DNA of 13,407 bases from Promethearchaeota archaeon (GTDB taxonomy: Archaea; Asgardarchaeota; Lokiarchaeia; Sigyniarchaeales; SOKP01), in the NCBI GenBank assembly GCA_048938855.1, contig JBHLLT010000026.1:1-13407 (forward strand). Reading direction: 5' to 3'. This document shows, one piece after another, positions 1 through 13,407 of the stretch. A program made the position numbers and the translations under genes. The notes under the pieces are model-generated. The model did no database searches. It was not told the origin of the DNA and worked only from the letters and a program-made list of their open reading frames with translations. Every line of letters starts with the position of its first letter. Within the stretch, counting starts at the first letter, position 1.

Positions 1-558
1 TTCGAGAAAATTCTAAATGAACAACCAATTCTTCAAAATGTAATTAAAGCTAATTCCCAATTTACTAAAAATCTGACCATAATAAAGGGAGGGATTAAAT
101 CAAATGTTGTACCTGATCAGTGTGAAGCTGTGATTGATTTCAGACTATTACCAGGTCAAAATGTTGAAATGATACTAGATGGATTGAAAACACTGATTGG
201 GAGTTTAGGGTATCAAGTAAAAGATAAACCCATAGGTCTTCCTAAAGAAGTCTTTGTATATTTGGAGATAGAAGAAGCTGGAGAGGCATCTTTTTTCTGT
301 GATTGGAAAAACTCACCCGCATTAGAGGTTTTTTATTCAATGGTAGAGAAACATTATGAGCGAAAACCTTTTTATTTCTTGATGCCTGGTAGTGCAGATG
401 CTAAATTTTATAGAAACACAAATTACTGTCAATCTACAATTCTATTTGGTCCTGGAAATGCACAAGCTGCTCATGCAACCAATGAATCGGTAAGTGTACA
501 AGATTTCATAAACGCTATTAAAGTTTTTACTTTGTTTGCTTATAAGTATCTAAAATAA
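1..558 (+). CDS. M20/M25/M40 family metallo-hydrolase (ArgE/DapE-like), 5'-truncated by the window edge
   Basis: Frame 1 is open from base 1 (FEKILNEQ...IIKGGIKSNVVPDQCEAVIDFRLLPG), matching the M20 dimerisation motif GGxxxNVVPxxxxAxxDxR. The C-terminal GSADAKFY...FGPG...AHATNESV matches the M20 terminal metal-ligand His motif. The GTG at 130 is internal. Confidence 0.88.
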   Translation, partial: FEKILNEQPILQNVIKANSQFTKNLTIIKGGIKSNVVPDQCEAVIDFRLLPGQNVEMILDGLKTLIGSLGYQVKDKPIGLPKEVFVYLEIEEAGEASFFCDWKNSPALEVFYSMVEKHYERKPFYFLMPGSADAKFYRNTNYCQSTILFGPGNAQAAHATNESVSVQDFINAIKVFTLFAYKYLK

Positions 559-660
559 CTATTAACCAAGAGATTTCAAATTAATGTTTATAGAAGTTTA
601 TAAGATTCTGCTACTATTATTTTATTAATTTCAAATAAATGAGATATTTTTTAGAACAAA

Positions 661-1842
661 TTGCCTATACAAAAAATTGAAGACACGGTCATCCTTTTAG
701 ATGCCTCTCGATCTATGTTAAGAAAAGATTTTAAACCAAGTAGACTAGCTATTGAATTAGAAGCGACAAAGAGTTTCATTCAGTCAAAATTATCTTTAGA
801 TATGAAAGATAGATTATCAATAATCACATTTGGGGAAGTTACAAAAAAATTAATTAATTTTGCTTACGATCAGGAAAAGTTAATTAAATCTTTAAAGAAC
901 ATCCAGGTTTCAGGTAAAGGATTGTTACATGAAGGTATAGCATTTGCACTTCAAATTCTTGTGGAAGAGATGAGGAAAGTTGGCGGAAAAACGTCTCGAA
1001 TATTAATCATCACTGACAATAAATTAAATACCGATATCAATAAATTAAGAAAAATGGTTAATATAGCTAAAGGCTTAGGTGTGATTATAGATGCATGTCA
1101 ATTAGGAGGTATAGAGGATAATGGTGAAGATTCTTTAAAGAGAATTACTCAGTTAACTGGAGGAAATTTTGAACATTTTAATAATTCAAAAGCAATTATT
1201 AATACCATTAATGAATTTGCTTCTAAAAAGGATGTAAAACAAACAATAGACTATTTTTCTCCCAATAAAGAGGATAATTCTGCTCCTTTAATAAGCGAGA
1301 TTGCATTACCGTTAAGAAGACCTTCATTATTAGAGATTAGGTTATTGACGAAAGGAGGCGGCAGAGGACACGTAAAGTGTCAAATTTGTCACTCTTTTAA
1401 GGCAGCAGTTACAGGATCTGATTTTTTAAGTGAAGGGCGTTATTGTCCTAGTTGTGATCGAGCAATGCATTTATCTTGTGCTGCCATGTGGGCTAAAAAA
1501 ACAGAATATAAGGAAAATGTGTTTCGATGTCCGTTTTGTTTTTTCTTATTAGAATTACCAACAGCAGCTTTAAAGTTAATTAAAGAAAAAACAGAAGAAT
1601 TTCCAGAAATAAAAATTGCTGAAGAAGATGAAATATTAGAAACGAATATGGTATTAGTGCCCGATGATGAAATCGATCAGATCAACGCTTCTTGTTCTTA
1701 TTGTCATAGTATTTTCTTAGGTGATTATAAAGTTTATAAATGTGAAAATTGTCAAGCTTATTATCATGAACCTTGTTTTCGAAAAGTATATAATGAACTT
1801 AAAGCTTGTCGATATTGCGGAGCAAAAATAATCTTAAAATAA
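661..1842 (+). CDS. vWA-domain protein with two C4HC3 RING/PHD-like zinc fingers (Ssl1/p44-like architecture)
   Basis: N-terminal VILLDASRSM (MIDAS DxSxS) followed by KDFKPSRL, then IITFG, GIAFALQIL and RILIITD, all typical of vWA. Finger 1 at 1378-1539 is C-x2-C-x18-C-x2-C-x4-H-x2-C-x16-C-x2-C. Finger 2 at 1693-1818 is C-x2-C-x12-C-x2-C-x4-H-x2-C-x10-C-x2-C. TTG start. Confidence 0.88.
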   Translation: MPIQKIEDTVILLDASRSMLRKDFKPSRLAIELEATKSFIQSKLSLDMKDRLSIITFGEVTKKLINFAYDQEKLIKSLKNIQVSGKGLLHEGIAFALQILVEEMRKVGGKTSRILIITDNKLNTDINKLRKMVNIAKGLGVIIDACQLGGIEDNGEDSLKRITQLTGGNFEHFNNSKAIINTINEFASKKDVKQTIDYFSPNKEDNSAPLISEIALPLRRPSLLEIRLLTKGGGRGHVKCQICHSFKAAVTGSDFLSEGRYCPSCDRAMHLSCAAMWAKKTEYKENVFRCPFCFFLLELPTAALKLIKEKTEEFPEIKIAEEDEILETNMVLVPDDEIDQINASCSYCHSIFLGDYKVYKCENCQAYYHEPCFRKVYNELKACRYCGAKIILK

Positions 1843-10074: not shown

Positions 10075-10311
10075 TTACTTTACTGCTTCAAAATACATAT
10101 ACCATTGTTCATCATCATCAATGAATTCTGTTCCTAAATGTTTATGCTTTGTTTTTGCTAAATCGCGTGGAACGGATTCACTGGCAGGTTTATAATCTGT
10201 TATTACTTTTAAAACAGTCCCAGGTCTCATTTTCATGAGTTGTTTCTTAGTTTTTAAAGCTGGAACAGGACATACTAACCCGCAGACATTTAATTCCATA
10301 TCATATTTCAT
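10075..10311 (-). CDS. tusA: TusA/SirA family sulfur carrier protein (78 aa)
   Basis: LNVCGLVCPVPALKTKKQL...PGTVLKVITDYKPASESVP contains the CPxP TusA motif. The likely start is the ATG at 10311, which has an upstream AAGGAG; the ORF-track start at 10377 overlaps the upstream gene. Confidence 0.9.
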   Translation of the reverse strand: MKYDMELNVCGLVCPVPALKTKKQLMKMRPGTVLKVITDYKPASESVPRDLAKTKHKHLGTEFIDDDEQWYMYFEAVK

Positions 10312-10345: not shown

Positions 10346-12814
10346 TTAATCACAAACAATTGAGAATAATGGCTCATCCATATCAGGTTCAGCTTTCATC
10401 TCAAGTTCCATTAACTGAACTAAACGTAAAGCTTCATATCTCACTTTATTGGGCTCAAGTCTAATATTTCTTGAGATATCCGATATAGTACTTGAACCTT
10501 GAAGGGTTATGTAATCTAATACTTGTTGCCTTGGCGTCTTTTCGAAGTTCATTAATTCTCGCTTTGATTTTAGATTAATAGCAGTTTTCAACTCTTCCTC
10601 ATCAACTTCTCCTTGATCGAATAATCCCTTTTCAATTGCTTTTTCGACAAGTTCTTTACCTCGTTCTGTCCATATTACAACTGTAGTATAACCATCATTT
10701 GAACCTACTTCACCTGCAGTGAGATCAGAATAGATTGCAGGGAAGTCTTGACAGTGAGCACAGAAATGGTTGCAACTCAAACATCTTCTTGCTTCTTGTA
10801 GAGCCATATCTTCATTGAACATTTTATCAATCTCTTCAAAACTCCAATTAATTTCTTCAGTTGCATTATCTAGAGTTTCTGGTTTTAATGAATAATCTTT
10901 TGGTGGTTTTTTAGGTCCAGTGAAAAATGAATTCTCTCTCTTAAATCTTCCTTCCATTAAATTTTGTCCCTTCAAATATCGGTCAATTGAAAAGGCTGCT
11001 TCCTTTCCGTGAGCGATAGCAGCAATCGCTACAGCTTTAGAATTACTAATAATATCTCCACCAGCAAAAACTCCCGGTATATTTGTTTCAAAAGTGACTT
11101 CATTTACTTTTATCTTATTCCGCTCTTTTTCTAATTTATTATTTGTTGCAGCATCTATTTGTTCGAAATCTACTGCTTGGCCAACTGCGATTACAATTGA
11201 ATCAACGGATATCTCGTAATCTGAGCCCTCAATCTTGTTTAATGGCCTTCTTCCATTTTTATCAGGATTACCCCACTCAATATTATAACATTTTAAAACT
11301 AATTTATTCTCTTTATTCTGTGTAATTTTTAAGGTTGAAGTTTTAAAATGATATTCCATAAATTCCATCTCATTTTCAGGAATATCTCTTAACACCAGTT
11401 CTAGTTGTTCCTCTGACATAATATCAACAAGGTGAACCTTCTCAGCCCCCAATCTAAGAGCCGTTTGAGCAACATCAACTGCAACTGCTCCACCTCCAAT
11501 TATACCTAAAGTTTTCCCTTTAAATTCTTCTTTATTCTCCCAGTACCGATACTTTCTATCCATTAGAAAACTAATCGCTACATGAACATTTGGTAAATCT
11601 TCCCCTTCTAAGTGTAAAGTACGAGGTTTATATTGGCCAGTTGCTATAAAAATAGCTTTAAATCCGTCATTCTTTAAATCATCAATAGTCATTTCAGGAC
11701 CTAATGGCTTATTAAGGACTACTTCAACACCCGAGTCTATTATCCTACCTACATCATAATCTAATACATAATTAGGCAGTCTAAATTGAGGTACACCGAA
11801 TCTTAACATTCCTCCTGTTTGGTCTGTTTTTTCAAATATGGTTGGAGCATATCCCATTCTCCTCAAGAAATATGCTGCAGTCAATCCAGCTGGTCCAGAT
11901 CCAATAATTGCAACTTTTTTAGCATTTTTGAGAGATTTATCTTTTGCTTTCGATTTCTTTTTAGCCCTTTCAATTTCCCATTCTGTAACAAATTTCTTCA
12001 ATTCGCGAATGGCAACTGGATGGTCATCTCCAATTAAAGTACATCCATGTTCACATTCATTTGTACAAATTCTTCCACATATAGATGGAAGAGGATTATT
12101 TTCTCTAATTAAATCTACAGCATCTTGGTACTTTCCTTGACGTATTAATGATATATATCCTTGAGCATTTACACCAGAAGGACAATTATTACAACATGGA
12201 GAACATACTAAACCCTTATCAGTTTGGGCAGTTCTCATTTGAGAACTACAGAATAAACCAATTTTTAAAATATCTCTGTTCATTTCTTCTTCAATTTCAG
12301 CAGCCCCACGCATTTCACATGGGACTCCAACAATTCCTATTGGATCAAAAGTCTTGCCAGTAAGCTCTACTAATTGTTCTAAAACTCCAGATCTACCATA
12401 AATCACACCTGCTTTCTGTACTACTTCATCAGGATCCGAAACAATATCAGCAGTAGGTTTTTCATCATCTTCTTGAACCATTACCATTTCTTTAAGTGTC
12501 TCGTTTTCTAACAATTCTTTAGCAAATGTTGTTACAAAACCTCCGTTTGAGGCTTTCGCTAAAATTTCAGGATTTTTACTCCTTAACGAATATATTGCCA
12601 AAGGTTTTTTCTCTTTAAATTTCTTTTGAATTACTTGAGGGCAAGTTTGATAACATTTCCCACAATCTTGCCCATCTCTCTCTAAAATACAATAATCCTT
12701 AAGCGTTGGACGTTTAACTTCCATTACAATATGCTTACATGAACCAGCACATAATCCACATCCTTGACAAAGCCCGGCATCTACAATTTCGTCACTTAAT
12801 AATTTAAAACTCAT
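10346..12814 (-). CDS. Mosaic iron-sulfur flavoprotein: 2x[4Fe-4S] ferredoxin, split FrhB/FdhB-family domain with an inserted GltD/SudA-like FAD/NAD(P) oxidoreductase, and a C-terminal winged HTH
   Basis: Ferredoxin: CQGCGLCAGSC...C-x8-CGKCYQTCP. FrhB first part: ASNGGFVT, IVGVPCEMRG, IGLFC. GltD-like module: SPCCNNCP...NPLPSICGRIC..CEHGC, IIGSGPAGL, GGMLRFGVPQFRLP, GGGAVAVD, VFAGGD, EARRCLSC. FrhB resumes: CAHCQDF...SDLTAGEVGS.DGYTTVVIWTERGKELVEKA. Tail: RQQVLDYITLQGSSTISDISRNIRLEPNKVRYEALRL. Confidence 0.88.
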   Translation of the reverse strand: MSFKLLSDEIVDAGLCQGCGLCAGSCKHIVMEVKRPTLKDYCILERDGQDCGKCYQTCPQVIQKKFKEKKPLAIYSLRSKNPEILAKASNGGFVTTFAKELLENETLKEMVMVQEDDEKPTADIVSDPDEVVQKAGVIYGRSGVLEQLVELTGKTFDPIGIVGVPCEMRGAAEIEEEMNRDILKIGLFCSSQMRTAQTDKGLVCSPCCNNCPSGVNAQGYISLIRQGKYQDAVDLIRENNPLPSICGRICTNECEHGCTLIGDDHPVAIRELKKFVTEWEIERAKKKSKAKDKSLKNAKKVAIIGSGPAGLTAAYFLRRMGYAPTIFEKTDQTGGMLRFGVPQFRLPNYVLDYDVGRIIDSGVEVVLNKPLGPEMTIDDLKNDGFKAIFIATGQYKPRTLHLEGEDLPNVHVAISFLMDRKYRYWENKEEFKGKTLGIIGGGAVAVDVAQTALRLGAEKVHLVDIMSEEQLELVLRDIPENEMEFMEYHFKTSTLKITQNKENKLVLKCYNIEWGNPDKNGRRPLNKIEGSDYEISVDSIVIAVGQAVDFEQIDAATNNKLEKERNKIKVNEVTFETNIPGVFAGGDIISNSKAVAIAAIAHGKEAAFSIDRYLKGQNLMEGRFKRENSFFTGPKKPPKDYSLKPETLDNATEEINWSFEEIDKMFNEDMALQEARRCLSCNHFCAHCQDFPAIYSDLTAGEVGSNDGYTTVVIWTERGKELVEKAIEKGLFDQGEVDEEELKTAINLKSKRELMNFEKTPRQQVLDYITLQGSSTISDISRNIRLEPNKVRYEALRLVQLMELEMKAEPDMDEPLFSIVCD

Positions 12815-12816
12815 CC

Positions 12817-13407
12817 TTATCCCTCTTTTATTTTAATTTCTTTCACAACTCCAATTGGATCAATCGTAAATTCAACTGAACCATTCTTATAGGTTCCCTC
12901 AACCACATCAAAAACGTGGGTTTTATAATCTTCAAAATTATCATTTTCCCCTATTTTGGCTTTAAATCCACCGTAGTACAAGTTTGATAAATTCATGTTC
13001 CCTGCTATCTTTCGAATTTTATCTGTTATATCTTTATATTTGTTTGGATCTTTGTTATTAATTGCATCCCTTAATTCGATTTCTAAGTCTAGTAAATTTT
13101 TCCTATATTTCTTTGTCGTTTCACTCACTTCTAAATTATTAGCGTGTTCATACGTCTCTATAATTTTAATTGTTAATGAAATAAAATGATCTCCTCCTAA
13201 TAGTCCTGAAATCAATGGTAATTCTTCAATTAATCTTCCCGTAAATACATCTTCTAACAAACTCCCCGAATTAGGAATTCTTCCTTTCGGTAATCTTGAT
13301 GTTGGGAGCGTAAACCTAAAGAAATTTCCAACTACATCTGGTAAGCTTTCAGTAATCTCGTCATCCCTATCAGCTAGTTTATCAGTTGCTCCTTTTTCAG
13401 AATGTTC
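12817..13407 (-). CDS. 5'-truncated gene: C-terminus of an MvhG-like [NiFe]-hydrogenase small subunit plus an extension of about 150 aa resembling a degenerate large-subunit fragment
   Basis: The frame is open to the window edge (EHSEKGATDKLADRDDEITESLPDVVGNFFRFTLPTSRLPKGRIPNSGSLLEDVFTGR...). PDVVGNFFRFTLP (13303-13341) matches the MvhG/VhuG C-terminal PDPVGTFYRF(S/T)L motif. The TTG at 13260 is internal. The stop lies 2 nt from the next ATG. Confidence 0.6.
   Translation of the reverse strand, partial: EHSEKGATDKLADRDDEITESLPDVVGNFFRFTLPTSRLPKGRIPNSGSLLEDVFTGRLIEELPLISGLLGGDHFISLTIKIIETYEHANNLEVSETTKKYRKNLLDLEIELRDAINNKDPNKYKDITDKIRKIAGNMNLSNLYYGGFKAKIGENDNFEDYKTHVFDVVEGTYKNGSVEFTIDPIGVVKEIKIKEG

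Follow-up and report, generated by a model that had tools for sequence, protein, structure and literature searches.

The 13,407-nucleotide stretch of DNA analysed here (the window) is the beginning of contig JBHLLT010000026.1 in assembly GCA_048938855.1 of a Promethearchaeota archaeon, and has a G+C content of ~30%. Between an extended mvhG gene and a tusA gene, its minus strand encodes an 822-residue protein in which a domain of the FrhB family is interrupted by a large cassette resembling GltD and NfnB. We refer to this gene as frhB::gltD-wHTH (frhB::gltD below). Residue numbers are those of the 822-residue protein, and nucleotide positions are those of the window.

An inserted cassette splits the FrhB fold

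The protein has a nested domain order (Table 1). Pfam places FrhB_FdhB_N (PF04422) at residues 75-148 (50.2 bits against a cut-off of 22), while FrhB_FdhB_C (PF04432; 67.3 bits against 23.3) is matched in two pieces, profile positions 4-49 and 66/71-149, each of which also scores on its own. A whole-genome scan locates these pieces at nucleotides 12215-12340 (profile 4-49) and 10598-10852 (profile 66-149). Fer4_20 (residues 190-283, 79.9 bits) and Pyr_redox_2 (residues 299-603, 102.9 bits) both exceed their gathering scores, so that all four families anticipated in a preliminary description of this DNA were detected. That description had also reported FrhB motifs split around a GltD-like insert of ~475 residues (10772-12203). 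The split and the large insert hold; the insert is slightly larger, at ~495 residues.

Sequence alignment to structures in the PDB follows the same arrangement. Residues 5-179 match the ferredoxin and FrhB-like N-terminal part of Fsr and the F420-reducing modules 8RJA/8RIU, residues ~200-685 match NfnA, StnC, and NfnB, and residues 685-760 match the C-terminal part of FrhB, with C685 and C688 falling on FrhB C192 and C195. The best NCBIfam model, PRK12771, spans residues 202-689 and scores 400.3 against a cut-off of 516. All GltD, NfnB, and FrhB models of NCBIfam stay below their cut-offs for this protein; gltA (TIGR01316) scores 290.2 against 471.75.

The domain cores of an AlphaFold2 model built from 68 homologues are confident (mean predicted local distance difference test (pLDDT) 74.7; predicted template modelling score (pTM) 0.49). 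In this model the two FrhB halves superpose jointly on a single FrhB chain, 9r51_B (Z 24.2, root-mean-square deviation 2.5 Å, 207 of 282 residues, model 65..758 against chain 1..279), the outcome expected if the halves reassemble into one domain. Other single chains of the FrhB family matched by the model are 8rja_K (Z 22.9), 8riu_E (Z 22.3), ElpB 8rvu_E (Z 22.1), and Fsr 7np8_A (Z 19.4). These superpositions come from the VIA wide structure search, which is independent of Foldseek; a whole-model Foldseek search listed GltD-type matches only. In frhB::gltD, one domain is genuinely inserted into another; the two are not simply joined end to end.

Table 1 Features of frhB::gltD-wHTH and its flanking genes in the window.
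Feature	Position	Strand	Basis
frhB::gltD-wHTH, whole gene (822 residues and stop)	10346..12814	-	open reading frame listing, translation
N-terminal 2x[4Fe-4S] ferredoxin domain, residues ~8-62, Cys 16/19/22/26/42/51/54/58	12629..12793	-	eight Cys invariant
FrhB fold part 1, residues 73-189, with GGFVT motif for flavin adenine dinucleotide (FAD) and ligands C166 (PC) and C189 (FC)	12248..12598	-	Pfam, PDB alignments, structural superposition
Inserted circularly permuted GltD/NfnB-type cassette, residues 190-684, ~495 residues	10763..12247	-	PRK12771, StnC/NfnA/NfnB matches
Cassette Fe-S domain (Fer4_20 profile ~13/29-111), Cys 207/211/246/250/254/258	11966..12247	-	Pfam; Cys invariant
Predicted cassette FAD and NAD(H) Rossmann domains (Pyr_redox_2), residues 299-603	11006..11920	-	Pfam, E 2.9e-29
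D464-I-M, end of nucleotide-binding beta2 strand	11417..11425	-	Y/L-R-R in solved relatives
Cassette tail, residues 658-686: displaced first Fer4_20 helix and C678xxC681, abutting FrhB C685xxC688	10757..10843	-	Fer4_20 profile 4-33, E 3.1e-5
FrhB fold part 2, residues 685-760: CxxC ligands, D-L-T-A-G-x-V-G-S motif	10535..10762	-	PF04432 profile 66/71-149; 8rja_E, 3zfs_C, 9r51_B alignments
C-terminal winged-helix-like domain, residues 761-822	10349..10534	-	model; kept in all homologues
tusA, second copy of the cluster, directly downstream	10075..10311	-	PF01206, E 1.6e-18
Extended mvhG, 3' part, directly upstream, runs off the window	12817..13407	-	orthologue alignment

Homologue searches returned more than 100 proteins at 71-96% identity from independent Loki/Promethearchaeota assemblies, nearly all of them 817-825 residues long and with the same Pfam set. 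Among 400 Asgard genomes scanned, ~70 contain full-length matches, two of these being single-contig (closed) genomes; the matches fall in the window's own order (families f1, f3, and f4), and one in another family, at 82% identity, looks misbinned. In a representative library of 1.84 billion proteins, only two other 50%-identity clusters have the full architecture, and all else matches residues ~204-690 alone. An assembly artefact is ruled out by the >100 full-length homologues and the ~70 genomes; because the homologues come from independent assemblies, the junctions are genuine, and the library scan makes the architecture narrow in distribution. Literature searches found no published description of this nested FrhB/GltD architecture, and public records name the homologues only 'FAD-dependent oxidoreductase'.

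The insert takes the place of the FrhB lid

The [4Fe-4S] cluster of FrhB is held by Cys104, Cys134, Cys192, and Cys195 (Mills et al., PMC3591093). Their counterparts in the alignment, C166, C189, C685, and C688, are invariant in the 68 homologues over which residue conservation was counted. The FAD motif GGFVT is likewise kept, with G91, G92, and T95 invariant, and the retention of both elements had been correctly read from the single sequence.

In FrhB, the segment between C134 and C192 forms a beta sheet whose only conserved loop adjoins the isoalloxazine of F420 (PMC3591093), and the equivalent segment of Fsr is a mobile lid of the F420 cleft (bioRxiv 10.1101/2022.04.07.487323), in line with the preliminary description, which had the replaced stretch contributing to the F420 pocket. 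In an alignment with five canonical FrhB paralogues of this genome, ~55 residues stand between the FC and CxxC motifs of the paralogues, a conserved basic motif among them. Against these five, the frhB::gltD protein lacks the lid together with the conserved basic loop at the F420 site. Judged by this alignment, the insert replaces the whole FrhB lid, F420-contacting loop included.

Genes for CofG, CofD, and CofE score above cut-off in the genome, and F420 production has been predicted for Lokiarchaeota (PMC8498797). F420 would thus be available in the host, the usual F420 channel of the protein appears to be gone, and F420 use by frhB::gltD is doubtful. We nevertheless considered a dual-port donor, or internal transhydrogenase, in which the lidless FrhB flavin still exchanges hydride with F420 in a pocket rebuilt from linker 620-657 and the cassette surface, and a single three-way Fe-S junction in the subunit links F420H2 and NAD(H) to the Hdr chain. 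The FrhB FAD motifs and fold are fully conserved, and the linker carries invariant G622, R623, F630, and P638 with several basic residues, although it is modelled at pLDDT <50 and the whole ~55-residue lid with its basic loop beside F420 (PMC3591093) is missing. F420 biosynthesis genes and ~12 FrhB paralogues are present in the genome, which has no Fno homologue above cut-off. In Hdr complexes, the corresponding flavin of ElpB and FdhB works with F420 (PMC12350162); however, FrhB-fold proteins that do not use F420 are known, such as HCAR (5dqr) and a Thermococcus Frh reported to reduce rubredoxin (PMC13333549). Weighing these points, we regard a dual-port donor as rather unlikely.

A circularly permuted cassette with predicted cluster ligands

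The insert had been described as a complete GltD module; it is instead a circularly permuted StnC/NfnA-type cassette and not a canonical GltD. The main Fer4_20 match starts at profile position 13 in frhB::gltD and at 29-30 in its homologues, and the opening of the profile is found at the far end of the cassette. This tail (residues 658-686) aligns with residues 12-48, the extreme N terminus, of Thermotoga maritima NfnB (4ylf_B), and also with the post-flavin tails of 9bov_A, 8oh5_C, and 9n5u_A. Because the tail matches the beginning of both Fer4_20 and NfnB, the canonical opening helix and CxxC now stand at the cassette end. The fold of the cassette matches those of NfnA (9n5v_A, Z 28.3, model 205..679), StnC (Z 27.7), and NfnB (4ylf_B, Z 27.5), and its GSGPAG, GGGxVAxD, and GGD motifs are invariant.

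Twenty cysteines are invariant in the homologues: eight in the N-terminal ferredoxin domain, four in FrhB, and eight in the cassette. The cassette cysteines (207, 211, 246, 250, 254, 258, 678, and 681) form a pattern that recurs in other cassettes of the 50%-identity library, and C204 and C208 are lost in more distant members. The 20 residues match the number needed for five [4Fe-4S] clusters and the two flavin motifs are intact, giving a predicted capacity of two flavins and five clusters, as had been proposed for the chimera. At the junction C678xxC681xxxC685xxC688, the cysteines of the cassette tail run straight into the FrhB ligands, with three residues separating C681 from C685; at the other end of the insert, 14 residues separate C189 from C204. 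By homology, we infer that C678 and C681 complete the distal cluster of the cassette together with C207 and C258. Owing to the permutation, both cassette ends would meet at this distal cluster, next to the FrhB cluster.

A nucleotide signature of the NADH type

In Rossmann folds, an acidic residue after beta2 classically marks an NADH-type site. The solved relatives 9n5u, 4ylf, 5jca, 9bov, and 8oh5 have V-Y/L-R-R after beta2 of the second Rossmann domain, where the alignment gives V-D464-I-M in frhB::gltD. The first signature position is D in 61, E in four, and Y in three of the 68 homologues. Y-R-R is present in 122 of 142 other cassettes, in all HdrC-GltD-HdrB paralogues of 43-46% identity, in the tandem second copies of the gene, and in G153, a basal member of the operon, and the sequences with D/E-I-x form one well-supported clade in the cassette tree. 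Since G153 and the tandem second copies keep Y-R-R, the ancestral donor would have been NADPH, and the change from Y-R-R to D/E-I-x suggests a switch from NADPH to NADH. An exchange of F420 for NAD(P), the better fitting of the two functions first put forward, is therefore to be qualified: the signature is of the NADH type and not the NADPH-type Y-R-R.

Possible exchange of the cassette between host proteins

The same genomes carry a protein of ~920 residues in which the same permuted cassette stands between an HdrC-like di-cluster domain and two CCG (HdrB-like) domains. The paralogue of this genome (920 residues; G000:C62:103328-106090, minus strand; L042:7328-10090) has an NADH-type V-D-I-L, and its cassette is 54% identical. 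In a cassette tree rooted on 25 other cassettes, the HdrC/B-hosted paralogues of 43-46% identity are sister to all FrhB-hosted cassettes, and those of 56-58% identity, including the paralogue of this genome, nest inside the FrhB-hosted clade with support of 100/100. Forcing all HdrC/B-hosted cassettes into one clade was rejected (approximately unbiased (AU) test, p 0.007) and forcing all FrhB-hosted cassettes together was marginal (p 0.046), both values being suggestive only, as the groups were named after the first tree had been seen. The tree suggests one or more transfers of the cassette from one host protein to another.

A conserved operon without a hydrogenase large subunit

Along the contig, which continues past the window, the genes on this strand follow the order tusA, dsrE, dsrF, dsrH, DsrE2-like, hdrC, hdrB, hdrA, mvhD, extended mvhG, frhB::gltD, and second tusA. 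Ten loci, all in one Asgard order and among them those of both closed genomes, keep this full order, at identities that fall to 52-57%. In 36 of 36 loci checked, the gene immediately before frhB::gltD is the extended mvhG, the stop and start codons at the boundary either overlapping or separated by only a few bases. Loci with enough flank have mvhD and hdrABC further upstream, ten of them with the sulfur-carrier genes too, and the downstream tusA occurs in every locus with sufficient flank, adjacent in all except L039 (~4.4 kb away). A divergent Lrp/AsnC gene accompanies the cluster, upstream in the window's family (L001:11408-11875); it lies between dsrE2 and hdrC in both closed genomes (L032:17333-17863 and L033:4117-4620).

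The operon contains no [NiFe] large subunit, and two are encoded elsewhere in the genome. Because the gene sits in an hdr operon lacking a hydrogenase catalytic subunit, its product most likely feeds the Hdr complex with NADH instead of H2. Two canonical FrhB paralogues of this genome are found a few kb from a [NiFe] large-subunit gene (G000:C77:1404-10995), and this region may therefore hold the true F420-type or Mvh-type hydrogenase genes.

In an orthologue of the extended MvhG, residues 1-256 align with MvhG over its full length (5odc_E/9sw2_E), and a Cys-free domain of ~155 residues follows. A complex prediction for the two FrhB halves (residues 1-192 and 676-822) with extended MvhG gave a score of 0.00, which speaks neither for nor against binding. 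Just past the end of the window, extended mvhG (12817-13407 plus G000:C24 13408-14229; L001:3817-5229) is broken by a stretch of N, on either side of which 25 residues (EHSEKG...LPDV) are directly duplicated. Its open reading frame has 470 residues against 410-422 in the orthologues; the break probably stems from a scaffolding overlap rather than from a genuine insertion.

The operon context also bears on whether the protein could be a stand-alone soluble enzyme independent of Hdr/Mvh, either an F420H2:NAD(P)+ transhydrogenase, as the preliminary description had suggested, or an NfnB-like bifurcating NAD(P)H:ferredoxin oxidoreductase. NfnB, which the module matches at Z 27.5, is indeed a bifurcating flavoprotein, but StnC, the nearest cassette relative with a described mechanism, is non-bifurcating (PMC10482914), and the N-terminal 2x[4Fe-4S] domain is of the kind that wires FrhB-type modules to partners in Fsr and Frh (bioRxiv 10.1101/2022.04.07.487323). 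One genus does have a second copy, of the Y-R-R type, duplicated in tandem where the cluster ends; the constant adjacency to extended mvhG, with its closely spaced or overlapping codons, argues against a stand-alone enzyme. Independent action is accordingly quite improbable, and the transhydrogenase is an unlikely function.

The second copies of that genus are 44-46% identical, follow the terminal tusA beside a gene for a VTT-domain membrane protein, and keep Y-R-R. They are located at L038:1647-4090 in G140, split there into open reading frames of 145 and 639 residues, and at L034:8366-10810 in G142. This clade was rejected as evidence for a stand-alone enzyme, given that the G140 copy is in tandem, right after tusA, and that the G142 contig ends 264 nucleotides beyond. 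In G163, a second, inverted dsrE-dsrF-dsrH set stands directly 3' of the terminal tusA (L040:12094-13195).

A winged-helix-like tail

Residues 761-822 are modelled by AlphaFold2 as three helices and a beta hairpin. Such a winged-helix-like fold in all homologues could point to a redox-sensing regulator, in which the tail binds DNA and the flavin/Fe-S body senses NADH or the sulfur redox state and controls the operon. Yet among DNA-binding families the tail has no significant match (best HTH_9, E 0.037), a dedicated Lrp/AsnC regulator already accompanies the cluster, the gene lies among structural genes, and five clusters with two flavins are far beyond what a sensor needs. We consider a regulatory role very improbable.

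The penultimate residue, Cys821 (C-D/E end, nucleotides 10349-10354), is present in 59 of the 68 homologues and missing in more distant members, among them the MK-D1-family sequences and the second copies. It recalls the C-terminal cysteine of DsrC/TusE, which otherwise has no counterpart in the TusA-DsrEFH cluster. A DsrC/TusE-like role of the tail as sulfur acceptor was rejected: the tail has no match to the DsrC family, and Cys821 is missing from the distant and second-copy sequences.

Comparison with known systems

The best matches to the insert are StnC of Sporomusa ovata StnABC (8OH5) and NfnA of the Bfu-type NfnABC complex (9N5U/9N5V, 9BOV), with E-values of 1e-78 to 1e-90 and Z of 27.7-28.3. 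Both have the same permuted layout, with an EA-x-R-C-x-x-C tail after the flavin domains, although identity to the insert is only 29-39%. The GltD domain of StnC (residues 102-565 as defined by its authors, tail included) is embedded in a NuoG-like protein and serves there, in place of a hydrogenase subunit, as an entry point for NADPH without bifurcation (PMC10482914). StnC and NfnA have a NuoG/FdhF-like host, Y-R-R, and a HydBC-type partner, whereas frhB::gltD has an FrhB host, D-I-M, and Hdr/Mvh neighbours. Canonical NfnB/NfnL, GltD, SudA, and the N-terminal module of DPD (4YLF, 5JCA, 6S6S, and 1GT8) share Fer4_20, two Rossmann domains, FAD, and two [4Fe-4S] clusters with the cassette, which differs in its permuted first Fe-S element, a possible all-Cys ligation via C246, the NADH-type signature, and scores below the NCBIfam cut-offs.

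On the host side, FrhB, Fsr-N, and FpoF (4OMF, 9R51, 7NP8, and 8RJA) share their fold, FAD motif, and PC...FC...CxxC cluster with frhB::gltD, and Fsr-N and FpoF also begin with a 2x[4Fe-4S] domain, but all have a lid of ~55 residues where frhB::gltD has 495. Besides StnC, the closest functional parallel is in methanogens. In Elp-Hdr, the place of Mvh as donor to HdrABC is taken by an MvhD homologue, an F420H2 oxidase of the FrhB type, and a truncated remnant of FdhA (PMC12350162); ElpB of Elp-Hdr (M. marburgensis, 8RVU) and FdhB of Fdh-Hdr (M. hungatei, 7BKB) are FrhB-fold flavoproteins encoded with MvhD and HdrABC. The dead relic ElpA (truncated FdhA) has its likeness here in an MvhG without a large subunit in the operon. 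At the level of genes, the same donor-arm arrangement is found for frhB::gltD, with mvhD and hdrABC co-encoded, a predicted FrhB-fold donor, and no catalytic metallosubunit in the operon. Unlike frhB::gltD, ElpB has an intact lid, oxidises F420H2, lacks an NAD(P)H cassette, and has its extra clusters at the C terminus; the acceptor of Elp-Hdr and Fdh-Hdr is CoM-S-S-CoB, which also sets them apart from the system described here.

The F420-dependent glutamate synthase (FGltS) was rejected as a model, because its FrhB-like and synthase parts are separate subunits and the partner is a synthase, not a GltD insert (PMC3448663). HdrA9-11 of anaerobic methanotrophic archaea (ANME-1) have an NfnB-like module of ~500 residues inside an Fe-S (ferredoxin) domain of an Hdr-system protein and a proposed role as NAD(P)H port (bioRxiv 10.1101/2021.09.25.461819; PMC9012536). 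In contrast to frhB::gltD, their host is HdrA and they belong to another lineage.

Proposed function

The frhB::gltD protein is probably the subunit through which electrons from NADH enter a hydrogenase-less Mvh/Hdr-type complex in Lokiarchaeia. It is an FrhB-type flavoprotein with an N-terminal 2x[4Fe-4S] domain, its lid swapped for a permuted cassette that is predicted to carry FAD, a nucleotide site, and two [4Fe-4S] clusters. NADH would pass hydride to the cassette FAD, from which electrons would travel via the two cassette clusters to the FrhB [4Fe-4S] cluster. The N-terminal ferredoxin clusters would then hand them to the MvhG-like subunit, the [2Fe-2S] cluster of MvhD, and the bifurcating FAD of HdrA, with the FrhB flavin kept as a side branch at the FrhB cluster. 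The obvious candidate for the bifurcating flavin is that of the co-encoded HdrA. HdrA would reduce ferredoxin, and HdrBC a disulfide or persulfide, perhaps on the co-encoded TusA/DsrE proteins; persulfides bound to TusA/DsrE have been proposed as Hdr substrates in another Asgard archaeon in a 2025 preprint (bioRxiv 10.1101/2025.07.22.663070).

Several observations weigh against this proposal. The preference for NADH is deduced solely from the classical acidic-residue rule for Rossmann folds, and Y-R-R persists in G153, the basal member of the operon, and in the tandem second copies. The AlphaFold2 model has low confidence at all cluster-binding sites and in linker 633-666, and at its pTM of 0.49 the placement of FrhB relative to the cassette, the inter-domain geometry, and the cluster distances are not reliable. 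With FrhB FAD motifs so strongly conserved and CofG, CofD, and CofE encoded, F420 may still play a role. Finally, the proposal does not account for the winged-helix-like tail, which is kept in all homologues.

A more speculative extension, which we hold to be distinctly unlikely, is a two-port hydride junction: NADH would enter at the cassette flavin, the FrhB flavin would serve F420H2 or some other substrate (for example a sulfur-carrier protein) let in by the pocket that has lost its lid, and the two ports would feed a bifurcating Hdr whose physiological acceptor is sulfane sulfur bound to TusA/DsrE. If true, this would be a new kind of energy-coupling, sulfur-reducing complex, and the cassette a domain moved repeatedly between Fe-S hosts.

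Hdr complexes are widespread in Asgard archaea, and we know of no electron donors or disulfide substrates identified for them. As an NADH-input subunit, frhB::gltD would be a concrete candidate for such a donor arm, a pyridine-nucleotide port in a hydrogenase-derived scaffold that is kept across one order. It also offers an example of modular evolution, in which a permuted NfnB-type cassette, its ends meeting at one cluster, may drop into the cluster loop of another protein and wire itself in. The same cassette lineage occurs in an HdrC/HdrB-type fusion in the same genomes, and the cassette tree conflicts with the host architectures. Within this family, the change from Y-R-R to D/E-I-x marks a probable switch from NADPH to NADH.

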